From assembly GCA_944393575.1 (NCBI GenBank), contig CALYAP010000030.1:180-64179 (forward strand): a DNA stretch of 64,000 bases. Direction: 5' to 3'. Made by a program: the position numbers and the translations under genes. Below, piece by piece: positions 30,062-54,753 of this stretch (its first letter is position 1; every line of letters starts with the position of its first letter). The stretch is from an uncultured Clostridia bacterium. Lineage in GTDB: Bacteria; Bacillota; Dehalobacteriia; UBA4068. The notes under the pieces are model-generated. The model saw only the letters and a program-made list of their open reading frames with translations. It did no database searches and was not told the DNA's origin.

Positions 30062-30415
30062 TAGCTGAGCAAGCCTATAAGCCGGGTTCTGTCGTGGATG
30101 AACATCTGTCTGGCCTCATTGTTGCCAATGAGTTCTAGCAACCTCTGCGAGAAACTAAACGGGCCGCTTTCCAGCTTCTCTGTACGGTCTTGCTCCGGAT
30201 GGGGTTTACCTAGCCAGCCGGTCTCCCGGCTGCTGGTGCGCTCTTACCGCACCGTTGCACCCTTACCGCCAAAAATGGCGGCGGTTTATTTCTGTGGCAC
30301 TATCCTTAAGGTCGCCCTCACCGGCCGTTAGCCGGCATCCTGCCCTATGGAGCCCGGACTTTCCTCAGACAAGGGCTTTCGCCCAGAGCCTGCGTTCATC
30401 CAGCTTACTCAGCAT
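30062..30415 (-). ncRNA. rnpB: RNase P RNA (bacterial type)
   Basis: The reverse complement contains GAGGAAAGUCCGGGCUCCAUAGGGCAG, GGUAAGGGUGCAACGGUGCGGUAAGAGCGCACC and ACAGAACCCGGCUUAU. The 5' end (GCUGAGUAAGC) and 3' end (GCUUGCUCAGC) pair to form P1. Confidence 0.9.
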
Positions 30416-31930: not shown

Positions 31931-32225
31931 AGGTTTTCCTCCAAAAATATCCGATATTTTTTATTTCTACTTTTCTGTCCTATACCCTGCCCCGAAATAG
32001 CCAAAAAAGAAAAAAGCTTGTCCCTTAAAACCTCTACTAAACCGAGACAAACGCATCTGACAAAGTTTTTTACAATCTCCTTATCAACCTATAAAAACAC
32101 TTGGTACAACGATATCAGAGAACCACTATCATCAAAGACACTTACTTAAGCATAGTAAAATAATTTTTGTTAAACAATTATAAATTAATTTAAGAAAATT
32201 TTTTGTAAAAAATTTTTCTTAGCTA

Positions 32226-32254
32226 TTGACAAAGCAAAAAACTGGTGATAAAAT
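32226..32254 (+). promoter_or_regulatory. SigmaA-type promoter of T-box unit A
   Basis: TTGACA (32226-32231), 17 nt spacer, TAAAAT (32249-32254). Confidence 0.65.
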
Positions 32255-32278
32255 GCAGTCCATAATTGAATATCACCA

Positions 32279-32546
32279 AAGGCAATGACGAAGACGGTCG
32301 AGCAGTTATGTTCGCAGAGAGTCGGCGGTTGGTGTAAGCCGATAACAACACTTCTCAAGTACCCATCACTTCCGAGCCGGGGATCCGAACGCTTATCTCA
32401 TAAGTTAGTAGACGTCCTCCGTGAAGCTGCGTTAAGGCGATGGGCTTGTTGGAGCCCTTTGAGGTGGCGCGAAAGCGCAATTTGAGTGGTACCGCGGGTA
32501 TGTTTATTCTCGTCTCAAAGATTTTTCTTTGAGACGATTTTTTATT
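32279..32546 (+). promoter_or_regulatory. T-box riboswitch leader, predicted specifier AUC (Ile)
   Basis: Stem I base has the K-turn context GGCAAUGACGAAG / CUUCCGAGCC. AG bulge AGAGAG and distal loop GGUUGGUGUAA are present. The T-box sequence AAUUUGAGUGGUACCGCGG is at 32479-32497. Terminator UCGUCUCAAAG...CUUUGAGACGA plus a U-run is at 32509-32546. AUC at 32365-32367 is followed by A and then the CUUC base stem. Confidence 0.85.
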
Positions 32547-32579
32547 ATTGGATATCAATAGTCTAAAGGAGGTTATCTC

Positions 32580-34841
32580 ATGTCCCCATGTAATGGAATG
32601 CTGCTGGAAGTTGCTTCACGCATCAGGGAAATGCGGGAAATCGCCGGATACACTCCGGAATTCATGGCAGAACAAACTGAAGTGTCTTTGGAAGATTATC
32701 TCAAATACGAAACTGGTTCTAGCGATCTTCCATTCACCTTTATTCATAAATGCGCACTGGTGTTTGATGTTGATATTACCGACTTGATGTCCGGACATAG
32801 TGCTAGGTTATCATCATATACTGTTACCCGCAAAGACGGCGGACAAATCACAGCCCGTGAGCCCGGCATCATCATCAAAAATCTGGCTCCACTCTTCCGC
32901 AATAAGATAGCTGAGCCTTTCTGGGTACGCTATTCCTATGATGAGAAACAACAACATAAACCAATCCATTTAACTACCCATGCTGGGCAGGAATTTGATC
33001 TGGTGCTAAGCGGCCAGCTCAAAGTTCAGGTGGGTGACAATATTGAAGTACTGCAGGAAGGCGACTGCATCTACTACAATAGCGCCACCCCTCACGGGAT
33101 GATCGCTATCGGCGGCAAGGACTGCATCTTCTGTGCAGTAGTCCTACCTGGCAAAGATAACGAAGAAGATAACCTAGGCGAAACTATCATGGCCACCAAA
33201 AAGATGGATCATCTCATCTATGAAAACTTCATCACTGTCGAAGAAGATGACATCGGAGCTTTGCAAAAGATCAGCTTCCATGATACAGATAAGTTCAATT
33301 TTGCTTTTGATATCGTTGATGAGATGGCTAAGAAACAACCGAACAAACTGGCCATGCTTCATCTGGACCGTGATAAAAATGAACGCCGCTTCACTTTCGA
33401 GGATATCAGCAGAGCCTCTTCCCGAGCCGCTAACTACTTCAAAGCTCTGGGCATCAAAAAGGGCGACCGCGTGATGCTGGTGCTCAGACGCAACTATCAA
33501 TTCTGGATAGCTATTTTAGGCTTACATAAGCTAGGTGCTATCGCTATCCCCGCCACTGACCAGCTGCAGAAAAAGGATTTTGAATACCGCTTTGAAGCTG
33601 CTGGAGTAAGCGCTATCGTCTGCACCTCTTTTGGCCACGTCTCCGAACAAGCAGAGTTAGCAATGGAAACCTGTCCTAATGTCAAAATCAAGATCATGGC
33701 TAATGGCGCCAAAGAAGGCTGGCATGATTTCGATAATGAATATATGATGTACCGCAGCACCTTTAAGCGCACCGAAGATAGCGCTGGCGGTGACGACCCG
33801 ATGCTGATGCTATTCACATCTGGTACTACTGGTTATCCTAAAATCGCTGCCCATAGCTACAAATATCCACTGGGACACTTCATCACCGCCAAGTATTGGC
33901 ATTGCGTCGACCCAGACGGGATCCATTTCACCATCTCTGATACTGGTTGGGGTAAAGCGCTCTGGGGTAAACTCTATGGCCAATGGCTCTGCGAAGCAGC
34001 TACTTTCACTTACGATTTTGACCGTTTTGACGCCCATGACCTGCTGCCGCTTTTTGCCAAATATCATATCACTACCTTCTGCGCGCCGCCGACCATGTAC
34101 CGCTTCATGATCAAAGAAGATATTTCCAAGTATGACCTCTCCTCTATCAAGCATGCAACCACTGCTGGTGAGGCGCTCAATCCTGAGGTTTTCCACCAGT
34201 TCAAAAAGGCTACCGGACTTTCGGTAATGGAAGGCTTTGGCCAAACAGAAACAACCTTAGTCTTAGGCAATTTCATTGGCGATACTCCCAAAATCGGCTC
34301 GATGGGCAAACCCAGCCCGCTCTATGAAGTGGAGCTGCTCAATAATGAAGGCCATCCGACTAAAGAAGGCGAGGTCGGTGAAATCTGCATCCGTACTGCC
34401 GAAAAAACACCAATCGGTCTCTATCTTGGCTACTACCGGGATGAAGAAGGCACTAAAGGCTCCTGGCACGATGGGTATTATCATACCGGTGATACGGCTT
34501 GGAAAGATGAGGACGGCTACTACTGGTATGTAGGCCGTGTTGACGACCTGATCAAATCCTCTGGTTACCGCATCGGCCCCTTTGAGATCGAGAGTGTTAT
34601 CATGGAGCTGCCCTATGTGCTGGAGTGTGCAGTTTCTCCGGCCCCAGACGCAATCCGCGGCCAAGTAGTCAAAGCCAGCATCGTTCTGACCAAGGGTACG
34701 GAACCCAGCGAAAACCTCAAAAAAGAGATCCAGACCTATGTCAAACAGCGCACCGCTCCTTATAAATACCCCAGAATCGTGGTCTTCCGTGATGATTTGC
34801 CCAAAACAATCAGCGGTAAAATCATCCGCCACCAGCTCTAA
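32580..34841 (+). CDS. Fusion protein: XRE-type HTH, cupin, then medium-chain-type acyl-CoA synthetase (AMP-forming)
   Basis: The N-terminal ~190 aa carry an HTH (IREMREIAGYTPEFMAEQTEVS) and a cupin (THAGQEFDLVLSGQLKVQVGD...EGDCIYYNSATPHG). The C-terminal part carries ANL motifs FTSGTTGYPK, YHTGD, GRVDDLIKSSGYRIGPFEIES and PKTISGKI. AAGGAGG RBS. Confidence 0.85.
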   Translation: MSPCNGMLLEVASRIREMREIAGYTPEFMAEQTEVSLEDYLKYETGSSDLPFTFIHKCALVFDVDITDLMSGHSARLSSYTVTRKDGGQITAREPGIIIKNLAPLFRNKIAEPFWVRYSYDEKQQHKPIHLTTHAGQEFDLVLSGQLKVQVGDNIEVLQEGDCIYYNSATPHGMIAIGGKDCIFCAVVLPGKDNEEDNLGETIMATKKMDHLIYENFITVEEDDIGALQKISFHDTDKFNFAFDIVDEMAKKQPNKLAMLHLDRDKNERRFTFEDISRASSRAANYFKALGIKKGDRVMLVLRRNYQFWIAILGLHKLGAIAIPATDQLQKKDFEYRFEAAGVSAIVCTSFGHVSEQAELAMETCPNVKIKIMANGAKEGWHDFDNEYMMYRSTFKRTEDSAGGDDPMLMLFTSGTTGYPKIAAHSYKYPLGHFITAKYWHCVDPDGIHFTISDTGWGKALWGKLYGQWLCEAATFTYDFDRFDAHDLLPLFAKYHITTFCAPPTMYRFMIKEDISKYDLSSIKHATTAGEALNPEVFHQFKKATGLSVMEGFGQTETTLVLGNFIGDTPKIGSMGKPSPLYEVELLNNEGHPTKEGEVGEICIRTAEKTPIGLYLGYYRDEEGTKGSWHDGYYHTGDTAWKDEDGYYWYVGRVDDLIKSSGYRIGPFEIESVIMELPYVLECAVSPAPDAIRGQVVKASIVLTKGTEPSENLKKEIQTYVKQRTAPYKYPRIVVFRDDLPKTISGKIIRHQL

Positions 34842-34954: not shown

Positions 34955-36241
34955 TTAGGCAACCGGGTTATTACAAATACCGACAAAGAGGATCATGCCG
35001 TTGCTGGCAGTGACCGCATAGATAAAGGGACGGTTCAAAATCATCTCCGCCCGTCCTTCAGGCATAGCAGCTCCGGCATAATCAATCTGGGTGAAAGCTG
35101 AGGCTTCGACGCCATTTTCATCGATAGCAATATGCGTCTCTTGATTAATACCACTAATAAAGGCCATCGCATCAGTGATTCCTGAGAAATCCGCATCCGT
35201 GTTAAAAGCAGCATTGATTCCTAGCGAGTGTAGCATATCAGCTAGGTTAGCACTAAAACCAAAGCTAAATTTGGGTATCTGCCAGATCACCTCGCCGCTG
35301 ACGCCTTCACCACCAGTGAGGACCTCCTGCAAAACATCTGGAGAAGATACCAATGATGCTACATCAACGCCCTCATCAGGTAGCACAAAAATCATACTGC
35401 CCGAGTTCTTTAAAGCCAGCTGAGAGCGGGTATAATTATTTCCCCGCACATAAGAGCTGGAGGCAAAAGTCTGGTTCATAAAATCGCATTCTACTGAACT
35501 ACTATCAGCTAGATAAAAGGTATCCGCAGCAGTTTCACTAGCATCAAAGCGGTCGATCCACTGATCATAAAAATAAACAGTATTAAGAATAGATAAGAGC
35601 TGCTCAGCATCAGTAGTGATCTGTGGAGTCAGCGTACCGTTAGTATCTTCAGTTATCCAAGCAGCCATGGCCTCACCAGCTGCCTGTTCAGCAAAATCCA
35701 CACTATAGGCACTGGCATAAAAATTACTTGTTGCCCCATCTAAAAAACTATCCTTGAAGGTGATTTCTTGGCCATTAACTTCATTATCTAACCATAGAGA
35801 AGTAGCGATCTTTAGCTGTGAAACTTCATTATCCGTATAGAGCAGCCGGTAAAGATTGCCGCACTGCTCCGCCAAGGTGTCGGCATCAGCTACCCCGAGT
35901 AAGTCTAGCAACTCCTGTTGAGTTTGCCCCTCGGCCCCACTGGCTGCCACTGCCAGGGCATAATAAAGACTGAGCGGCGAATAGTTGACATTTGTATCAG
36001 CATTATCATTTAATAAGGAAGAAGCAGTTTGATAGGCAAAATCATCAAAAGCATTAGCAAAACTATCGGTAATCTGGTTAGCTTCCCTAATAGCATATTT
36101 GGCTTCATAATCATCAAACCCTACCGCCTCTGGGTATTCCACCCCGCGCACCAGGCTATCCGCTGTAGCAGTCTGATTATCACAGGCAGCCAAAGCTAGC
36201 AAGGCAACAGCAGCGCATAAGGCCAGCAAAAATTTTTTCAT
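34955..36241 (-). CDS. Serpin family lipoprotein
   Basis: Signal peptide with lipobox LAAC. Serpin-length body. Hinge and reactive-centre loop ENGVEASAFTQIDYAGAAMPE are followed by NRPFIY. Confidence 0.8.
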   Translation of the reverse strand: MKKFLLALCAAVALLALAACDNQTATADSLVRGVEYPEAVGFDDYEAKYAIREANQITDSFANAFDDFAYQTASSLLNDNADTNVNYSPLSLYYALAVAASGAEGQTQQELLDLLGVADADTLAEQCGNLYRLLYTDNEVSQLKIATSLWLDNEVNGQEITFKDSFLDGATSNFYASAYSVDFAEQAAGEAMAAWITEDTNGTLTPQITTDAEQLLSILNTVYFYDQWIDRFDASETAADTFYLADSSSVECDFMNQTFASSSYVRGNNYTRSQLALKNSGSMIFVLPDEGVDVASLVSSPDVLQEVLTGGEGVSGEVIWQIPKFSFGFSANLADMLHSLGINAAFNTDADFSGITDAMAFISGINQETHIAIDENGVEASAFTQIDYAGAAMPEGRAEMILNRPFIYAVTASNGMILFVGICNNPVA

Positions 36242-36610: not shown

Positions 36611-36759
36611 CTCCTGAATAGACCCATGAGCAAAAGCTATCTGCAGGCCAAACAATTAATATTACTCTGGGAAAGGACAAACAGTTACCAGTATCTGTTT
36701 ATAAAATAAGACGCAGGGAAAAACAATTATGTTCCCAGGTAAAATTTTTGAAAAAACAT

Positions 36760-36788
36760 TTGACAGCGTCCAAAAGCCATGCTATAAT
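36760..36788 (+). promoter_or_regulatory. SigmaA-type promoter of T-box unit B
   Basis: TTGACA (36760-36765), 17 nt spacer, TATAAT (36783-36788). Confidence 0.7.
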
Positions 36789-36810
36789 ACATACTAATTT
36801 CATAAGAATA

Positions 36811-37068
36811 AAGGCAATGACGAAGAGGGTCGGGATTTTAGTAGTTACAGAGAGTTGGCGGTTGGTGCGAGCCAATAATGAACGGATTCCAATGGCTTGT
36901 CACTTCCGAGCCGGGGTGCAGAAAGCAAATGCAAGTAGAGCCTCCCGTGAAGCTGCGTTAAGGCGATGGGCTTGTTAGAGTCCTTTGAGTGGTGCGAAAG
37001 CGCAATTTGAGTGGTACCGCGGGTATGTTTATTCTCGTCTCAAAGATTTTCTTTGAGACGATTTTTTA
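36811..37068 (+). promoter_or_regulatory. T-box riboswitch leader, predicted specifier GUC (Val)
   Basis: Same architecture as unit A: GGCAAUGACGAAG / CUUCCGAGCC base, AGAGAG bulge, GGUUGGUGCGA distal loop, AAUUUGAGUGGUACCGCGG T-box sequence, and terminator plus U-run at about 37033-37068. GUC at 36899-36901 is followed by A and then CUUC. Confidence 0.85.
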
Positions 37069-37095
37069 TTTTACTTAAAAGGAGAAACGAGAGCA

Positions 37096-39399
37096 ATGAA
37101 CCAGTCCAACGAATTATTCTCTAAGCTGCATGAAGTGGCTGCCCGAATTCGCGAATTGCGGGAGATAGCTGGCTATACGCCAGAATTCATGGCAGAGCAG
37201 ACTGGCGTATCAGTTGGTGAATACCAAGAATGCGAAAGTGGCGAACAAGACCTCAACTTCGCTTTTATCTATCGCTGCGCCCAGGCTTTGAGCGTTGATG
37301 TTACTGATATCATCGAAGGCGCTAGCCCTAAACTTACATCATACACCCTGACCAGAAAAGGCGAAGGCCAGCGCATCGAAAAAGCACATGGGATGATCTA
37401 TTATAATCTGGCGGCAATGTTCAAAAACAGGATCGCTGAGCCACTGCTGGTCACAGCAGTCTATGATGAGGAAGCCCAGCATAAAGAAATCGAGATTACT
37501 ACTCATGCCGGACAAGAATGCGATATTATTGTCAAAGGACAGCTCAAGGTGCAAGTTGGCGATCATACAGAAATCCTCCAGGAAGGAGACTGCATCTACT
37601 ACAATAGCTCTACTCCACATGGCATGATCGCCGTTGGCGGAAAAGATTGCCTGTTCTATGCTATCGTTCTTAATCCTACTGGCGAGCCGATCCCAGGTAT
37701 CTCTGCTGGTCCACAGGAAGGAGATTTTCTGCCGGAGATCAAAGGCAAAGGACATCCTTGCCAAGCGCATCGGATCTATGAAAACTTCATCACGGTCAAA
37801 GAAAGCGAGATTGGCGCTCTTGAAGAGATCAGCTTCCATGATGATGAGCATTTCAATTTTGCCTTTGATATTGTCGATGAACTGGCCAAGAAAAAACCGA
37901 ACAAACTGGCTATGCTTCATCTGGACCGTGATAAGAATGAACGCCGCTTCACCTTTGAAGATATGAGCAGGGCTTCTTCCCGTGCCGCCAACTACTTCAA
38001 AGCGCTGGGCATCAAAAAAGGCGACCGTGTGATGCTGGTGCTCAAGCGGAATTATCAGTTCTGGTTCGCTGTTCTGGGCTTGCATAAGCTAGGTGCTATC
38101 GCTATCCCCGCCACTGATCAGCTGCAGAAAAAGGATTTCGAATACCGCTTTGAAGCCGCTGGAGTAAGCGCTATCATCTGCACTGCCTATGGTAGCTCCT
38201 CCGAGCAGGCAGAACTAGCAATGGAAACCTGCCCTAATGTCAAAATCAAGATCATGACCAATGGAGCCAAAGAAGGCTGGCATGATTTCGATAATGAATA
38301 TATGATGTACCGCAGCACCTTTAAACGCACCGAAGATAGCGCTGGCGGCGACGACCTGATGCTGATGTTCTTTACCTCTGGCACTACCGGATACCCCAAG
38401 ATGGCTGCACATAGCTTTAAATATCCGCTGGGGCATTTTATCACCGCTAAATATTGGCATTGTGTCGACCCGGAGGGGCTTCACCTGACCATCTCCGATA
38501 CTGGTTGGGCCAAAGCAATGTGGGGCAAGCTCTATGGCCAATGGCTCTGCGAAGCAGCGATCTTTGTTTATGACTTTGACCGTTTCGACGCCCATGACCT
38601 GCTGCCGCTTTTCGCTAAGCATCATATCACTACCTTCTGCGCTCCGCCGACCATGTACCGCTTCATGATTAAGGAGGATATCGCCAAGTATGACCTCTCC
38701 TCCATCAAGCATGCTACCACTGCTGGCGAAGCGCTTAACCCAGAGGTTTTCCACCAGTTCAAAAAAGTTACTGGACTCTCAATCATGGAAGGCTTTGGTC
38801 AAAGTGAAACCACTGTGGTCTTAGGCAATCTCATTGGCGATACTCCCAAAATCGGCTCGATGGGCAAGCCCAGCCCGCTCTATGAAGTAGAGCTGCTCGA
38901 TAACGAAGGGAATCCAACCAAAGTCGGCGAAGTTGGTGAAATCTGCATTCGTACTGCCGAAGGTGCACCACGCGGACTATTCAGAGGCTATTACCGTGAT
39001 GAAGAAAAAACTAATGACGCCTGGCATGATGGTTATTATCATACTGGCGATACGGCCTGGAAAGATGAAGATGGCTACTACTGGTATGTAGGCCGTGTTG
39101 ATGACCTAATTAAATCTTCCGGATACCGCATTGGCCCCTTTGAGATCGAGAGTGTGATGATGGAACTGCCCTACATTTTGGAGTGTGCAGTTTCTCCGGC
39201 CCCAGACGAAATCCGCGGCCAAGTGGTCAAAGCCAGCATCGTTCTTACTAAAGGGACGGAGCCCAGCGAAAACCTTAAAAAAGAGATCCAGACCTATGTC
39301 AAACAGCGCACCGCTCCTTATAAATACCCCAGGATCGTGGTCTTCCGTGACGAATTACCAAAAACACCCAGCGGCAAAATCATGCGTAACAAGCTATAA
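37096..39399 (+). CDS. Fusion protein: XRE-type HTH, cupin, then medium-chain-type acyl-CoA synthetase (paralog B)
   Basis: Same motifs as paralog A. It has a ~14 aa longer linker (PTGEPIPGISAGPQEGDFLPEIKGKGHPCQAHR). Confidence 0.85.
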   Translation: MNQSNELFSKLHEVAARIRELREIAGYTPEFMAEQTGVSVGEYQECESGEQDLNFAFIYRCAQALSVDVTDIIEGASPKLTSYTLTRKGEGQRIEKAHGMIYYNLAAMFKNRIAEPLLVTAVYDEEAQHKEIEITTHAGQECDIIVKGQLKVQVGDHTEILQEGDCIYYNSSTPHGMIAVGGKDCLFYAIVLNPTGEPIPGISAGPQEGDFLPEIKGKGHPCQAHRIYENFITVKESEIGALEEISFHDDEHFNFAFDIVDELAKKKPNKLAMLHLDRDKNERRFTFEDMSRASSRAANYFKALGIKKGDRVMLVLKRNYQFWFAVLGLHKLGAIAIPATDQLQKKDFEYRFEAAGVSAIICTAYGSSSEQAELAMETCPNVKIKIMTNGAKEGWHDFDNEYMMYRSTFKRTEDSAGGDDLMLMFFTSGTTGYPKMAAHSFKYPLGHFITAKYWHCVDPEGLHLTISDTGWAKAMWGKLYGQWLCEAAIFVYDFDRFDAHDLLPLFAKHHITTFCAPPTMYRFMIKEDIAKYDLSSIKHATTAGEALNPEVFHQFKKVTGLSIMEGFGQSETTVVLGNLIGDTPKIGSMGKPSPLYEVELLDNEGNPTKVGEVGEICIRTAEGAPRGLFRGYYRDEEKTNDAWHDGYYHTGDTAWKDEDGYYWYVGRVDDLIKSSGYRIGPFEIESVMMELPYILECAVSPAPDEIRGQVVKASIVLTKGTEPSENLKKEIQTYVKQRTAPYKYPRIVVFRDELPKTPSGKIMRNKL

Positions 39400-39541: not shown

Positions 39542-40090
39542 CTATTTCATTACCATACCAGCAGCCTCAGCGCCTTTACGCAAAGCCTCACGGTTAACCG
39601 GAATCAGATGTTTCTTTCTTTCGCCTAATTTATGCTGCAAGGCATCAATGATGCTTTCTTCGCTAACGCATTTGGTAGCAGCGACATAAGCGCCCAGCAT
39701 AGCAATATTGGCAACTTTAGGCTGTCCAAGTTCAACGGCAATCTCAGTACAAGGGATATAGAATGCATCTAAATCATCCCGGGTAGTTTTTCTGGAAATA
39801 ATCGAGCTATTAATAAATAGTTTGCCCTGAGGAATGATAGCCTGTTCAAACTTATCTAAAGAAGGAGCATTCATCGCAATCAAAGAGGTAGGATGCTCAA
39901 TAATCGGGGATGCTACCGGCTTATCAGAAATAGTGACTGAGCAGTTAGCCGTACCGCCGCGCATCTCCGGGCCATAAGAAGGCAACCACGCAACATTATG
40001 TCCTTCGAACAAGGCAGCCTGAGCCAGCAGTTGTCCCATCAATAAAACGCCTTGCCCGCCAAAACCAGCAAAAATATCTCTCTCCAGCAT
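39542..40090 (-). CDS. 2-oxoacid:ferredoxin oxidoreductase, gamma subunit
   Basis: 182 aa. FAGFGGQGVLLMGQLLA start is typical of the POR/KOR/VOR gamma subunit. Confidence 0.85.
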   Translation of the reverse strand: MLERDIFAGFGGQGVLLMGQLLAQAALFEGHNVAWLPSYGPEMRGGTANCSVTISDKPVASPIIEHPTSLIAMNAPSLDKFEQAIIPQGKLFINSSIISRKTTRDDLDAFYIPCTEIAVELGQPKVANIAMLGAYVAATKCVSEESIIDALQHKLGERKKHLIPVNREALRKGAEAAGMVMK

Positions 40091-40092
40091 CG

Positions 40093-40827
40093 CTATACCT
40101 CCTTAAAAACGCCCAAAGGATAATAGGGGATCATCTCATCCTCCAGCCATTGCATCGCTTCGATAGGTGATTTGCCCCAGTTGGTCGGGCAGGTAGAGAG
40201 CACCTCTACCATAGAAAAGCCCTTGCGTTCCATCTGCGTCTCAAAAGCTTTGCGAATAGCTTTCTTGGTCTTGATAATATTAGCATTATTATTGACAGCG
40301 GTACGTTCGATATAAGCGGAGCCTTCAATAGTAGCGAGCAGCTCAGCCATGCGAATCGGCTCACCGCAAAGATCCTTATCCCTACCCTTAGGGCTAGTAG
40401 TGGTACGTTGACCAACCAAAGTGGTCGGCGCCATCTGACCGCCGGTCATACCATAAATGGCATTATTGATAAAGATAGTGGTGATCTTCTCTCCCCTATG
40501 AGCTGCGTGAACGATCTCTGCAGTACCGATAGAGGCCAGGTCGCCATCACCTTGATAAGTAAAAACACAGTTATTGGGGAAAACCCGTTTAGCACCAGTG
40601 GCGACTGCCGGAGCACGTCCATGTGCTGCTTCATACATATCACAATTAAAATAATTATAAGCAAATACTGCGCAACCGACCGGTGCAACGCCAACGGTAT
40701 GGTCGAGAAGATCCATTTCCTCAAGGACTTCTGCTACCAGACGGTGCACTATCCCATGGCCGCAGCCAGGGCAATAATGATTAGGAACATCAATCAGTCC
40801 CTTAGTTCTAGCGAAAACCTTGGTCAT
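40093..40827 (-). CDS. 2-oxoacid:ferredoxin oxidoreductase, beta (TPP-binding) subunit
   Basis: CPGCGHG..., GDGDLASIG and NNAIYGMTGGQ motifs. Confidence 0.9.
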   Translation of the reverse strand: MTKVFARTKGLIDVPNHYCPGCGHGIVHRLVAEVLEEMDLLDHTVGVAPVGCAVFAYNYFNCDMYEAAHGRAPAVATGAKRVFPNNCVFTYQGDGDLASIGTAEIVHAAHRGEKITTIFINNAIYGMTGGQMAPTTLVGQRTTTSPKGRDKDLCGEPIRMAELLATIEGSAYIERTAVNNNANIIKTKKAIRKAFETQMERKGFSMVEVLSTCPTNWGKSPIEAMQWLEDEMIPYYPLGVFKEV

Positions 40828-40829
40828 TG

Positions 40830-41906
40830 TTATTCCTCCCTCAGCGCTTTAACTTTGGCAATGATTTCCTCAACAGTGGCGATCTTGCTTCCGGGATAAC
40901 CCAGGAAAGCAACCTCCTTTAGACCATTGACTGCTAGACGGGCGTCTTCGACCATCTGACCAGCACTGATCTCTACAGCCAAGGCTTTCTTGACTGAAGG
41001 CTGAGCCACTGCATCCAATACCGCCTGAGAAGGGAACGGCCATAAGGTGATCGGACGAACCATGCCAACCTTAATCCCCTCCTCTGCTAATTCATCAATA
41101 GCAGAACGGCAAACGCGGGAGATGGTGCCATAGGCGATCAGGATAACTTCTGCATCCTCAATATTATAATACTCATATCTAACTTCATTTTGCTCAATAA
41201 TACGATAACGTGCCTGCAAGCGCTCATGCAGAGCTTCCAGAGCTTCATCTTCGATATAAAGGGAATTGATAATTGCTCTTGGCCGTCCGCATCCTTCATG
41301 CCAGCCAGTAGCAGCCCAAGGCTTCTCAACTTTTATTTCCTCGTCGCTCTTAAATTCAGGCATAGTGACTGGCTCCATCATCTGACCGATCAAGCCATCG
41401 GCCAAGATCATCACTGGAGTGCGGTATTTATCAGCGATATCAAAAGCACCATAAACGATATCGATAGCCTCTTGGACAGAATCCGGACCAAAAACGATCA
41501 GCTTATAATCGCCATGACCGCCGCCTTTGACTGATTGGAAATAGTCACCCTGGGAAGCCTGAATACCACCAATGCCCGGGCCACCGCGCATTACATTCAC
41601 GATCACGCAAGGCAGCTCCGCACCAGCAATGGTAGAGATACCTTCCTGTTTTAAGCTGATTCCCGGGCTAGAGCTGGAAGTCATAACTCTAGCGCCGGCA
41701 CCTGCGGCGCCGTATACCATATTAGAAGCTGCGATCTCCGACTCCGCCTGGAGAAAAACACCACCGATCTCCGGCAAACGGGCGGACATATATTCAGGAA
41801 TATCATTCTGCGGGGTGATTGGGTAGCCGAAGAAATAGCGGCAACCTCCGCGCAGTGCTGCCTCAGCAATAGCTTCGCAGCCTTTCATCAATTGTTTAGT
41901 CGTCAT
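40830..41906 (-). CDS. 2-oxoacid:ferredoxin oxidoreductase, alpha subunit
   Basis: 358 aa. GCEAIAEAALRGGCRYFFGYPITPQ start. Confidence 0.9.
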   Translation of the reverse strand: MTTKQLMKGCEAIAEAALRGGCRYFFGYPITPQNDIPEYMSARLPEIGGVFLQAESEIAASNMVYGAAGAGARVMTSSSSPGISLKQEGISTIAGAELPCVIVNVMRGGPGIGGIQASQGDYFQSVKGGGHGDYKLIVFGPDSVQEAIDIVYGAFDIADKYRTPVMILADGLIGQMMEPVTMPEFKSDEEIKVEKPWAATGWHEGCGRPRAIINSLYIEDEALEALHERLQARYRIIEQNEVRYEYYNIEDAEVILIAYGTISRVCRSAIDELAEEGIKVGMVRPITLWPFPSQAVLDAVAQPSVKKALAVEISAGQMVEDARLAVNGLKEVAFLGYPGSKIATVEEIIAKVKALREE

Positions 41907-41919
41907 CTATGTAGCCCTC

Positions 41920-42126
41920 CTATTTATCGATCTCTATTGCCACATCAGGACAAGTACGGGCACAGGCAGCACAGGCGATGCAAGCATCCTGGTCTACGAT
42001 ACGTACTGGCTGATAACCTTTGGAATTAAGTTTCGTCTCTTCCAAAGTTAGCAGGTTTTTGGGACAAGCACGAACGCACAGTCCACAACCTTTACAGATC
42101 TCGGTATATATTGTTAATTTAGCCAT
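41920..42126 (-). CDS. 2-oxoacid:ferredoxin oxidoreductase, delta subunit (2x[4Fe-4S] ferredoxin)
   Basis: 68 aa with two CxxCxxCxxxCP motifs. Confidence 0.85.
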   Translation of the reverse strand: MAKLTIYTEICKGCGLCVRACPKNLLTLEETKLNSKGYQPVRIVDQDACIACAACARTCPDVAIEIDK

Positions 42127-42145
42127 TTACTCTAACCTCCATCTT

Positions 42146-42853
42146 TTAAACTCCGTATTTAACGAATCTATCCCAGTCGCGGTGCATCTTAGTATGGATG
42201 AACACCGGTTCACCAATATAATCCTGTTTTAAATCCCGCTCCTGTGCCAGCTGCAAAAAACCGCTTAGCGGCTGCTCTTCTCCACTGGTCATAACTACCG
42301 GTACTCCAGTTTGGGCAGCAACTTCCTTAACTATATAATAGGAATGGAGGAGATCCTCCGCCGTGCTTTCATAGCTCATGTTCCCATTATTAATTAAGCC
42401 GTTGATTCTGAGTCTCGCACTCTCCTCAATGGCTCTCATCATAGCTATTATCTTGTCCGGGGTTGCCGACATTGGTCGGTGCGGGTTAATAACAAGCCAT
42501 ATACGCAATCGAGGTGGTGGAACTTTATCAAAGTAGCCTTTATACTGGCCTAGCGCACGCGCTCCTAGACCATCGCCGCCGACGTCAAAAATAACGCTGC
42601 CAGATCCGGCAGTAAAGGCGGAATAAATCTCGGGGTTGATGGTAATTATCTCAACATTGCTCATCGCATAGTTAGGGATAATTAGTCGTACGCCAGCCTT
42701 GTCTAGAGCTAGCTTTCTTTCCGAGGCCCGAAAATAGGGGTTGATCACATCTAGGTCGATGAGAGTAGTCGGATTACCAGCTGCTGCAGCATCCATAGCA
42801 AAATGCATTGCCAGTTCAGTCTTGCCACTGCCAAAGTTGCCAAGGAAAATCAT
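42146..42853 (-). CDS. P-loop NTPase (MinD/CooC-like SIMIBI fold) of unknown function, first gene of the OFOR operon
   Basis: MIFLGNFGSGKTE Walker A at the N-terminus and an IDLD..NP motif. The ATG at 42853 follows AGGAAA. The ORF track extends to the GTG at 42892. A candidate promoter GTGACA, 17 nt, TATAAT lies on the minus strand upstream (about 42905-42945). Confidence 0.55.
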   Translation of the reverse strand: MIFLGNFGSGKTELAMHFAMDAAAAGNPTTLIDLDVINPYFRASERKLALDKAGVRLIIPNYAMSNVEIITINPEIYSAFTAGSGSVIFDVGGDGLGARALGQYKGYFDKVPPPRLRIWLVINPHRPMSATPDKIIAMMRAIEESARLRINGLINNGNMSYESTAEDLLHSYYIVKEVAAQTGVPVVMTSGEEQPLSGFLQLAQERDLKQDYIGEPVFIHTKMHRDWDRFVKYGV

Positions 42854-42999
42854 ATATTCTTTTTCCTGGGCTTTATCCGACACAAATCTCACTTTCCTCT
42901 CAAATTTGAATAGAATATATTATAGCACAGTTATTGAGAATTGTCACTATTTTATTTAGGAAATTTATTACTTTTTTGCAACAAAAAAGCATGATTATT

Positions 43000-53232: not shown

Positions 53233-54753
53233 ATGGATGCCATCTATGCCCGTCAATCAATAGACAAAAAAGACAGTATTTCCATCGAGACACAGATCGA
53301 GCTCTGCAAGCGGGAAGGTGGTGCGGATAAGCCCTATCTGGTCTATAGCGATAAGGGGTATAGCGGCAAAGACCTGCAGCGACCGGATTTCCAAAAAATG
53401 CTATCTGCAGTACGCGAACGGCAGATCTCCCGCATCATCATCTACCGTCTGGACCGCCTGAGCCGCTCGCTGCTTGATTTCGCCTCCTTGATCGAATTAT
53501 TCCGCAGCTATGGGGTGGCCTTTGTCTCTACTCAAGAGAAATTCGATACTGAAACGCCGATGGGGATGGCCATGCTCAATATCGCCATGGTTTTCGCCCA
53601 ACTGGAACGGGAGACCATTCAGGCGCGAGTGAGAGATAACTATTACAGCCGTGCCAAAACAGGTTCTTGGCTAGGAGGCAGAGCCCCTTTTGGCTTCAGC
53701 AAAGATACTATTGTCATGCCAGACGGGCAGCACAGCTATAAAACCTTACAGGAAGATAAGAGTCAGTCAGTCATTTTGCAAAAACTCTTTCATATGTATG
53801 GAAGGGAAATGCTCTCCCTCTCAGCTATCGCCAACCAGCTCAACCAAGAACAGATTCCCTCTCCCGAAGGCTCAGTCTGGGATAGCAGCAAAATCAGCCG
53901 TATCCTGCGTAATCCCGTCTATGTCAAAGCATCTCCAGCTATTTATCAATATTATCAGCGTAAGGGCTGTCAGATCACCAATGATATCACGGATTTTGTC
54001 ATGGATAACGCCTGTTTTCTCTATGGCAAAAGGGAGGAAAATGCCCGTAAATTCAGTGATGTCAAAGATCATTATCTATCCTTGGCAATGCATCAAGGAT
54101 TGATAGATGCAGAGCTTTTTCTTAAATGCCAGCAATTACTTGATGCTAATATCCGCTTTGGTTCGCGGCATGGCAGTTACCGCAGTTGGTTGATAGGATT
54201 ACTGCGTTGTGGACATTGTGGTGCTACGATGCGAGTCAACGCCTCGCGGGGAGGTAAATACCTCTACTTCACCTGCCAGAACAAAAGTCGGGGACTCTGT
54301 CAGGGAAAAAGCTATTGTGCTGCTGTGCCGACGATAGAGGAGGCAGTCAAACAGCAGCTATTTCAACAAATACAGCCATTAGCAACTATCCAGGTACCGG
54401 GACAGCCCACTTGCCAACAAGAAATAAAGCAAGCGCAAGCACGATTAGCAGCTATCGAGGAGCAAATTGCGCGCTTGATCGATATGGCTTTGCAGGGAGG
54501 AGAGCTGACCGGCAAATACTTGGAGAAACGCTTATGTGGCTTAGAAAAAGAGAAAAACCAAGCAAAACGAGCAATACTTAAACTGCAAAGCCAGTCCAAC
54601 CAACCTGTTTTACCGCCACAGCCAAAAGATCTGCCACGTTTATGGGAACAACTCAATACCGGGCAGCGCCATGAAATAGCCAAAATTTTTATCAAAAAAT
54701 TGCTGCTAGACGAGAGAGGACTGAGCATATACTGGCAATATAATCTACAATAA
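53233..54753 (+). CDS. Large serine recombinase
   Basis: N-terminal resolvase catalytic motif AIYARQSIDKKDSISIETQ, recombinase domain, zinc ribbon CGHCGATM...FTCQNK..LC and a C-terminal coiled coil. 506 aa. Confidence 0.85.
   Translation: MDAIYARQSIDKKDSISIETQIELCKREGGADKPYLVYSDKGYSGKDLQRPDFQKMLSAVRERQISRIIIYRLDRLSRSLLDFASLIELFRSYGVAFVSTQEKFDTETPMGMAMLNIAMVFAQLERETIQARVRDNYYSRAKTGSWLGGRAPFGFSKDTIVMPDGQHSYKTLQEDKSQSVILQKLFHMYGREMLSLSAIANQLNQEQIPSPEGSVWDSSKISRILRNPVYVKASPAIYQYYQRKGCQITNDITDFVMDNACFLYGKREENARKFSDVKDHYLSLAMHQGLIDAELFLKCQQLLDANIRFGSRHGSYRSWLIGLLRCGHCGATMRVNASRGGKYLYFTCQNKSRGLCQGKSYCAAVPTIEEAVKQQLFQQIQPLATIQVPGQPTCQQEIKQAQARLAAIEEQIARLIDMALQGGELTGKYLEKRLCGLEKEKNQAKRAILKLQSQSNQPVLPPQPKDLPRLWEQLNTGQRHEIAKIFIKKLLLDERGLSIYWQYNLQ

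Follow-up and report, generated by a model that had tools for sequence, protein, structure and literature searches.

The window analysed here, a stretch of 64,000 nucleotides from contig CALYAP010000030.1 of an uncultured Clostridia bacterium, contains at 32276–32546 on the forward strand a complete, canonical transcription-attenuating T-box leader located in front of a gene for an acyl-CoA synthetase of the ANL family. With AUC as its specifier codon, this leader is almost certainly a T-box responding to tRNA-Ile. A second full-length T-box, which an earlier note on this DNA had missed, carries a valine specifier and precedes a paralog of the same gene, with genes for a VorB-type oxidoreductase (VOR) close by; it is this valine twin together with the neighboring VOR genes that makes the isoleucine T-box interpretable. 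We consider it somewhat more likely than not that the whole forms a route in which an isoleucine-responsive T-box governs the activation of 2-methylbutyrate, the resulting thioester being carboxylated by VOR on the way to isoleucine.

All leader elements named in the earlier note are present, and they are collected with their coordinates in Table I. The Rfam covariance model of the T-box family (RF00230), applied with an E-value threshold, matches the first leader over its full length (32276–32520, forward strand, model positions 1–219 of 219, 80.2 bits), the E-value being 8.8e-18 in a local search of 601 nucleotides and 9.4e-16 in the whole window. The Rfam check proposed in that note thus yields a full-length match far beyond chance, but the score remains below the curated gathering score of 93. 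The latter is an operational threshold and not a structural feature, and the leader is retained as a T-box because of its low E-values, the full-length matches and the scores above 93 that 6 of the 11 uncut orthologous leaders reach. With the default gathering thresholds, RNase P RNA is the only Rfam match in the window. Folding of the leader shows that the 3' strand of the antiterminator is also the 5' strand of the terminator, so that the two folds are mutually exclusive. A ribosome-binding site, AGGAGG, is found 7 nucleotides 5' of the ATG at 32580. An inverted repeat formed by GGTGATA (32244–32250) and TATCACC (32271–32277) covers the -10 box together with the 5' end of this leader and is lacking at the second one; a mir-36 match at 32244–32277 is a spurious product of this repeat.

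Relatives of the system were collected starting from the fused protein encoded downstream. The search yielded 8000 candidates at E ≤ 1e-20, the best 120 of which are all about 70% identical and share the same four domains. The carriers include Oscillospiraceae, Christensenellaceae, Anaerovoracaceae, Sporobacter and many metagenome-assembled genomes from gut and rumen; a homolog is present in the cultured Sporobacter termitidis DSM 10068. The sources label the proteins as "AMP-binding protein", "acetyl-CoA synthetase" or "XRE family regulator with cupin sensor". When one genome was scanned per species, at least 599 encoding stretches came to light, from which 80 loci with flanks were kept (L001–L080). 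In nearly all of these a T-box core motif lies roughly 100–150 nucleotides 5' of the homolog. A relaxed pattern was used for the core; the stricter G[GA]TGG... pattern misses GAGUGGUACC, which is the window's own. Likewise, a rule requiring a purine after the codon misses about half of the isoleucine leaders, which have a C there, and specifiers were therefore called with a covariance model.

This model, R1, describes stem I and was built from 68 confidently parsed sequences, in the alignment of which 18 of the 19 pairs show compensatory changes. Applied to the window and the 80 loci, R1 detects 128 stem I elements. Over these leaders 94.1% of the cells are paired, as compared with 71.6% in shuffles, and the covariation score is 0.662 against 0.230 for shuffles and at most 0.19 when the partners are slid by 1–3 columns. 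The helices of the K-turn base are 98–99.8% paired, again with compensatory changes. An isoleucine, valine or leucine codon occupies the specifier column in 125 of the 128 leaders (ATC in 61, GTA in 40, GTC in 8, CTC in 11 and CTG in 5; the other 3 have a different triplet). UGGU is present in each of the 125 leaders with a recognizable T-box core, a strict test recovers a perfect terminator with T-run in 110 of the 125, and promoters equivalent to that of the first window leader precede nearly all of them. The Rfam model confirms 16 T-boxes in a sample of 14 loci, where the 11 uncut leaders divide into 6 above and 5 below the gathering score. These 5, like both window leaders, are sub-gathering despite E-values of 1e-14 to 1e-18.

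The organization of the loci follows the specifiers. In 29 of them an Ile T-box with its synthetase gene (ANL1) is followed, always in this order, by a Val T-box with a second one (ANL2); the Ile unit stands alone in 25 loci and the Val unit in 15, counts that are upper bounds since many contigs end early, and 5 loci have a second ANL gene devoid of a T-box of its own. In a neighbor-joining tree of 94 downstream proteins, one clade comprises 52 proteins behind Ile leaders and 1 behind a Val leader, the other 38 behind Val leaders and 1 behind an Ile leader. The specifier thus tracks the enzyme clade.

The register of the specifier was examined at the level of both alignments. In the Rfam alignment, AUC followed by A stands directly 5' of the CUUC strand of the basal helix, that is, at the canonical specifier position. 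The earlier note had arrived at the same triplet by comparison with a textbook stem I; Rfam and R1 agree on it, and neither model places a different triplet in the specifier slot. The covariation analysis of orthologous leaders that had been suggested there points the same way: pairing reaches 99.8% in the helix just 3' of the specifier, and each of its 4 pairs shows compensatory changes. Because this helix covaries in the R1 alignment, the register is fixed independently of Rfam. Moreover, ATC is invariant in the 61 Ile-class leaders while the flanking bases vary. The three preceding bases are CCC, CCT, CTT, ACA, TCG and others; the -1 frame is unconserved across orthologs (CAU, UAU or GAU), and the +1 frame is UCA or UCC for Ile leaders but UAG or UAA in most Val-class leaders. 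The base after AUC is A in 31 and C in 30 of the 61 leaders, a pyrimidine being unusual at this normally conserved purine position.

The argument of the earlier note that UGGU predicts a tRNA with discriminator A73 does fit tRNA-Ile, but it does not discriminate, as UGGU is equally found in the leaders of the Val and Leu classes. No tRNA gene lies within the window. The one relevant tRNA gene in 60 loci, a tRNA-Val(GAC) gene from a related locus, encodes CCA and has A73, which matches UGGU.

The assignment of the regulated gene to the ANL family in the earlier note is borne out by Pfam (PF00501, 211 bits; PF13193, 75 bits). Both regulated proteins of the window consist of a helix-turn-helix (HTH) domain of the XRE type, a Cupin_2 domain, and the AMP-binding and AMP-binding_C domains. 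The ANL motifs TSGTTGYPK, YHTGD, SGYRIGPFEIE (hinge and A8) and PKTxSGK are intact and invariant in the family alignment. The closest solved structure of the ANL domain is 3ETC, the medium-chain acyl-CoA synthetase MacsMa of Methanosarcina acetivorans (E 1.5e-191, 641 bits), which prefers 2-methylbutyrate as its acyl substrate (PMC10455477). Among the NCBIfam models the highest-scoring is MbcS, the methylbutyryl-CoA synthetase of Staphylococcus aureus (NF047394), with 440 bits against an equivalog cutoff of 850; the first protein is therefore a relative and not an ortholog of MbcS.

Comparison of the proteins behind Ile and Val leaders revealed 11 columns that are conserved within each type but differ between the two. 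Ten of these are in the HTH-cupin part (positions 8–114), and the only one in the ANL domain is position 458 in DTGW-[G/A]-K, which is Gly in 100% of the Ile-type and Ala in 100% of the Val-type proteins. Position 458 is presumably homologous to a residue of the acetate pocket reported for acetyl-CoA synthetase (Ingram-Smith 2006). It aligns with native Gly255 of MacsMa, four residues before Trp259, so that MacsMa, which prefers a C5 acid, resembles the Ile type. Trp259 occupies the acyl pocket of MacsMa and is critical for substrate binding (PMC10455477). W462 of the window protein aligns with chain residue 282 of 3ETC, equivalent to this Trp (the offset of 23 between chain and native numbering was derived from the YHTGD motif, numbered 431–435), and the alternate acyl-pocket Trp is thus present. 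The change from Gly to Ala at 458 would add a methyl group for an acid one carbon shorter, as predicted for a switch from 2-methylbutyrate to isobutyrate. Taken together, the first gene probably encodes a 2-methylbutyrate-activating enzyme.

The second T-box of the window matches RF00230 at 36808–37045 (89.3 bits, E 4.4e-18). The two window proteins are 79.5% identical, as compared with roughly 58–69% for most pairs in other loci, and at the DNA level the identity of the two units is uneven: about 90% in the 3' half of the T-box (32434–32553) and 85–98% in the ANL domain (33296–34841), falling to about 70% in stem I and 55–67% in the region coding for HTH and cupin (32609–33236). The discriminating sites are nevertheless kept, copy 1 being Ile-type at 9 of 11 and copy 2 Val-type at 10 of 11, with the Gly/Ala difference at 458 preserved. 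That the Val copy could be a recent duplicate of the Ile copy, produced by one A-to-G change in the specifier, was rejected, as it is Val-type at these 10 sites and nearer to Val-type orthologs. Because copy 2 is of the Val type by sites and by orthology, the high similarity of the copies is, as read from the alignment, attributed to patchy gene conversion that homogenized the generic parts of the units (32200–34841 and 36730–39399); the specifier loop, residue 458 and the N-terminal module seem to have been maintained by selection. Between the two units, on the reverse strand (34955–36241), lies a gene for a bacterial serpin (Pfam Serpin, 236 bits) whose signal sequence resembles that of a lipoprotein.

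A block of VOR genes and a P-loop NTPase gene (39542–42892, reverse strand) is convergent with the second regulated gene. Its alpha subunit belongs to NF005507, the VorB subfamily, which is described as 3-methyl-2-oxobutanoate dehydrogenase (ferredoxin). In 42 of 63 informative loci, defined as those with at least 900 nucleotides after the last ANL gene, the ANL genes are followed at a median distance of 25 nucleotides by a P-loop gene of the same orientation, which precedes the delta, alpha, beta and gamma subunits of VOR. The order Ile T-box, ANL1, Val T-box, ANL2, P-loop, VOR likely constitutes an operon in those loci. Homologs of the P-loop NTPase between the ANL and VOR genes are conserved in 47 loci and might be Fe-S or assembly factors for VOR. 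Genes for a flavodoxin, DUF3793, TGT, TrmK, ThrC and an aminotransferase in the window were dismissed as parts of the system, since they are not conserved neighbors in the relatives.

Based on these features, the following mechanism can be proposed. Transcription would start from the promoter at 32226–32254, and stem I would dock tRNA-Ile(GAU) through the AUC specifier and the distal platform. When this tRNA is uncharged, its free ACCA 3' end would pair with UGGU (32487–32490) and stabilize the antiterminator; when it is charged, the terminator (32510–32537) would form and transcription would stop before the gene. The first gene would thus be transcribed as isoleucyl-tRNA charging falls. Its product would convert 2-methylbutyrate to 2-methylbutyryl-CoA, which the VorB-type oxidoreductase, using reduced ferredoxin, would carboxylate reductively to 2-oxo-3-methylvalerate, and transamination would then give isoleucine. 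The unit at 36808–39399, under its GUC T-box, would lead from isobutyrate to valine by the same route. The earlier note had stressed that the target is neither an aminoacyl-tRNA synthetase nor a biosynthesis or transporter gene. Indeed, it is not a classical gene of any of these kinds, but it is probably a biosynthetic enzyme of the salvage type, and because of this the target would follow normal T-box logic. That anaerobes draw on branched volatile fatty acids to make Ile and Leu is documented (PMC10658910). Of this scheme, the T-box anatomy, the register and conservation of the specifier, its co-variation with the enzyme clade and the VOR synteny are observed, whereas the acyl substrates, the direction in which VOR runs and the purpose are inferred.

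Several observations weigh against this proposal. Both window leaders are below the Rfam gathering score, and the Rfam alignment does not make evident the usual AGUA/GAA S-turn of the specifier loop, GGUC standing opposite AGUA and AAG opposite GAA, with a 4-nucleotide insertion in the loop. The VOR cluster of the window is inverted, with its own promoter and no T-box, which leaves co-regulation in the window unsupported; VOR enzymes also run oxidatively; and no aminotransferase was found linked to the T-box–ANL system among the neighbors in related loci. Finally, what supports the substrates assigned to the fused family is homology to MacsMa and MbcS, together with guilt by regulation. With these points included, the balance tips slightly towards isoleucine synthesis via VOR as the purpose of the system.

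The same T-box could instead serve lipid synthesis, 2-methylbutyrate and isobutyrate being scavenged as branched acyl-CoA primers for membrane fatty acids so as to spare Ile and Val, and we regard this as unlikely, if still worth consideration. MbcS, the best NCBIfam match of the ANL domain at 440 bits, converts branched carboxylic acids to such primers and is expressed more strongly once the signaling of branched-chain amino acid (BCAA) sufficiency by CodY is lost (PMC13584741; see also PMC10026030 and PMC11167679), and an induction under isoleucine limitation would fit a sparing role. On the other hand, the equivalog cutoff of MbcS is far from reached, and mbcS is reported as confined to staphylococci. 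The supply of primers would not require a ferredoxin oxidoreductase, but VorB-type genes follow the ANL genes in two-thirds of the informative loci (42 of 63); a cell starved of BCAA would work against itself by having VOR oxidize the keto acids derived from them, and separate switches for Ile, Val and Leu fit amino-acid supply better than primer supply. The lipid role is thus compatible with the T-box logic but leaves the VOR linkage unexplained, and both roles may coexist.

It is less probable still, and we hold it rather doubtful, that the fusion is mainly a regulator or trigger enzyme, with the ANL domain as sensor and the HTH-cupin module controlling other BCAA genes, or that it acts on another Ile-related acid. 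The module is detected in Pfam as HTH_19, HTH_3 and HTH_31 plus Cupin_2, and an AlphaFold model of residues 1–207 (mean predicted local distance difference test score, pLDDT, of 84) displays an HTH domain and a cupin barrel. A sequence search of the module against the PDB gave no match. Its best matches in a fold search are the HTH_3-cupin regulator 1Y9Q, in line with a regulatory function, and HppE, HEPD and MPnS, metal-dependent enzymes that share this two-domain architecture but are not DNA-binding proteins. H134, E138 and H172 are invariant in the family and would fit the 2-His-1-carboxylate metal site of cupins. Some of the 10 discriminating residues of the module are located in predicted HTH helices, and in the window the module resisted the gene conversion that homogenized the ANL domains. 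As nearly all type-specific residues are located there, the module probably recognizes something that differs between the Ile and Val types, be it an amino acid, an acid or a distinct operator. A predominantly regulatory role is at odds with the catalytic motifs of the ANL domain, all intact and highly conserved, and with the lack of a conserved operator: apart from A/T-rich elements near the -35 box, the search 5' of the leaders gave just one motif, which is AATTGAATA-like and confined to a minority of them. This motif lies between the -10 box and stem I in 17 of 125 leaders, against 0.26% of background windows, and many Ile-type promoters have an A/T-rich T-run or A-run just 5' of the -35 box that resembles an UP element or a CodY box. 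These motifs are insufficient to support autoregulation.

Least probable of all, and largely refuted by the observations, is that the leader is decayed or non-functional, or that CCC, CAU, UCA or another triplet is the true specifier and the isoleucine assignment wrong, since the features that could suggest it (a score below the gathering threshold, the specifier-loop insertion relative to the Rfam consensus and the C instead of the usual purine after the codon in half of the Ile-type relatives) are set against the invariance of ATC alone among unconserved neighboring frames, a covarying helix that sets the register, orthologous leaders of which 6 in 11 pass the gathering score, and an intact promoter and terminator.

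In addition to the Ile and Val classes, the related loci contain T-boxes with the leucine specifiers CUC or CUG, an arrangement absent from the window. They are found in L065 (1322–5522, reverse strand) and also in L017, L022, L027, L034, L036, L045, L050, L052, L061, L062, L064, L067 and L068. These T-boxes precede a LeuA-like protein of about 470 residues (HMGL-like and LeuA_dimer domains) that scores below the NCBIfam LeuA cutoffs and begins with ITDMTLRKAAE..., without the usual RDGEQ motif; its gene is followed by one for an 836-residue protein in which a xylose-isomerase-like TIM barrel is fused to an ANL domain. Such loci may represent the leucine/isovalerate arm of the same system. A third class of T-box, with two examples (L010, 8325–8426; L066, 3008–3109), stands directly before P-loop and VOR genes; its specifier loop, GCAUCUG[C/A]AU, offers no plausible codon when read in the canonical register, and AUC and CUG overlap in it. 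Elsewhere in the window, an RNA of bacterial RNase P class A is encoded on the reverse strand (30062–30411, 297.8 bits), and a large serine recombinase (Resolvase, Recombinase, Zn_ribbon_recom) at 53233–54753 on the forward strand, 3' of ruvB and queuosine genes, may mark an integrated mobile element.

Table I. Elements of the two T-box units of the window and of the neighboring VOR genes
Feature	Position	Strand	Basis or remark
Promoter of leader 1	32226–32254	+	TTGACA, 17 nt, TAAAAT, extended -10 TG; 11/12 hexamer matches, near-consensus sigma-70
Complete Ile T-box leader (stem I, stem II, IIA/B, stem III, antiterminator/terminator)	32276–32546	+	RF00230
Stem I, leader 1	32279–32378	+	R1, 87.8 bits
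K-turn base, GGCAAUGACGAAG pairing with CUUCCGAGCC	32281–32293 with 32369–32378	+	sequence
K-turn helix GGC/GCC	32281–32283/32376–32378	+	
K-turn helix GAAG/CUUC	32290–32293/32369–32372	+	
K-turn GA motif, UGA and GAG	32286–32288 and 32374–32376	+	flanking both base helices
AGAGAG bulge	32316–32321	+	nearly invariant in 68 relatives
Distal loop GGUUGGUGUAA	32327–32337 (distal stem-loop 32322–32342)	+	nearly invariant in 68 relatives
Specifier AUC and following A	32365–32367 and 32368	+	same register from Rfam and R1
T-box sequence AAUUUGAGUGGUACCGCGG	32479–32497	+	
Antiterminator	32481–32519	+	UUUGAG 32481–32486; GCGGG/CUCGU helix; CUCAAA 32514–32519; folding
Antiterminator 7-nt bulge UGGUACC	32487–32493	+	UGGU (32487–32490) pairs with tRNA 3' ACCA end
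Intrinsic terminator	32510–32546	+	12-bp stem 32510–32537, then U-run; -23.4 kcal/mol, z = -5.55
Regulated gene 1, 753-residue HTH (XRE type)-cupin-ANL fusion	32580–34841	+	Pfam; Ile-type, Gly458 in DTGW-G-K
Promoter of leader 2	36760–36788	+	TTGACA, 17 nt, TATAAT; 12/12 consensus
Second T-box leader	36808–37070	+	RF00230 89.3 bits; R1 89.4 bits
Specifier GUC (Val) and following A, leader 2	36899–36901 and 36902	+	specifier column of alignments
UGGU of leader 2	37012–37015	+	
Terminator of leader 2	37035–37061	+	followed by U-run
Regulated gene 2, 767-residue paralog	37096–39399	+	same HTH-cupin-ANL architecture; Val-type, Ala at 458 equivalent
VOR gamma subunit	39542–40090	-	Pfam; generic family model, below equivalog cutoff
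VOR beta subunit	40093–40827	-	Pfam; generic family model, below equivalog cutoff
VOR alpha subunit	40830–41906	-	NCBIfam VorB subfamily NF005507, 524 bits vs. cutoff 399
VOR delta subunit, 68 residues, 2x[4Fe-4S]	41920–42126	-	
P-loop NTPase, weak CbiA/ParA-like match	42146–42892	-	accompanies VOR genes

The leaders described here share with the transcriptional T-boxes of Firmicutes (RF00230; for example the ileS, valS and leuS leaders) the K-turn at the base of stem I, the AG bulge, the distal loop, a specifier located one base before the closing helix, stem II, the IIA/B element, stem III, the UGGN antiterminator and a competing terminator. The codons AUC, GUA/GUC and CUC/CUG for Ile, Val and Leu are typical of T-box leaders of aminoacyl-tRNA synthetase genes. 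Unlike in these, the target is an HTH-cupin-acyl-CoA synthetase and not an aminoacyl-tRNA synthetase, a classical ilv/leu gene or a transporter; moreover, about half of the class is sub-gathering, an S-turn is not evident, and the specifier is followed by a pyrimidine in half of the Ile class. At the protein level, MacsMa has the DxGWGK...W motif including the Trp259 equivalent, with Gly at the Ile-type position, but it is archaeal and does not contain the N-terminal HTH-cupin module. We know of no T-box control of MacsMa and would expect none, T-boxes being bacterial. The MbcS of Staphylococcus aureus is likewise an ANL enzyme acting on short branched acids that goes up when BCAA-sufficiency signaling is lost; it differs in its indirect control via CodY, without a T-box (PMC13584741), in its lipid primer role and in having no link to VOR.

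The proposed route itself is the one by which methanogens and the anaerobes of rumen and gut convert branched acids to BCAA through reductive carboxylation. For sixty years or so it has been known that rumen and gut Clostridia need, or are stimulated by, branched volatile fatty acids, which they carboxylate to BCAA; the classical physiology of this carboxylation in rumen anaerobes is reportedly due to Allison, Robinson and Bryant. Methanogens have been described to use 2-methylbutyrate and isovalerate (PMC10658910). In the literature searched, this physiology is not tied to the present gene family or to control by a T-box.

The earlier note knew of no T-box in front of an ANL-family acyl-CoA synthetase, and the literature searched here likewise contains none linked to acyl-CoA synthetases, branched fatty acids or VOR, although an earlier mention may exist. 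No such target is given in Wels 2008, Sun 2013 and TBDB 2020 or in the supplements of two regulon surveys, and the MbcS papers mention no T-box. T-box databases presumably list those leaders that pass the gathering score, but without comment. The RNA belongs to a known family with a canonical mechanism; what appears to be new is the class of target, the conserved arrangement of several T-boxes and the pathway assignment that it implies.

The genes for the activation step of branched-acid carboxylation, and their control, have been poorly defined so far. In the loci studied here the RNA switches act as built-in labels, the Ile, Val or Leu codon of each leader naming the amino acid that the enzyme behind it serves. 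This provides a testable functional annotation for a widespread and vaguely named protein family and ties it to a VorB-type oxidoreductase; pipelines that rely on gathering thresholds would miss about half of these leaders. The window can moreover be regarded as a natural experiment, gene conversion having evened out the two units everywhere but at the sites in which specificity seems to lie. As a tentative joint reading, the specifiers may reveal the substrates of the HTH-cupin-ANL fusions, a very large family of thousands of proteins, with relatives in at least 599 species-representative genomes, which would then be the missing acid-activating step from isobutyrate, 2-methylbutyrate and isovalerate to Val, Ile and Leu, each arm possibly being gated twice, by an amino-acid-specific T-box and by a type-specific metal-cupin/HTH sensor acting through feedback inhibition or autoregulation. 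The T-box regulon would in this way extend to the scavenging of fermentation acids, with a bearing on cross-feeding in gut and rumen and on the supplementation of feed with branched volatile fatty acids, and our analysis suggests that gut and rumen bacteria rebuild BCAA from fermentation acids under T-box control when BCAA are short.

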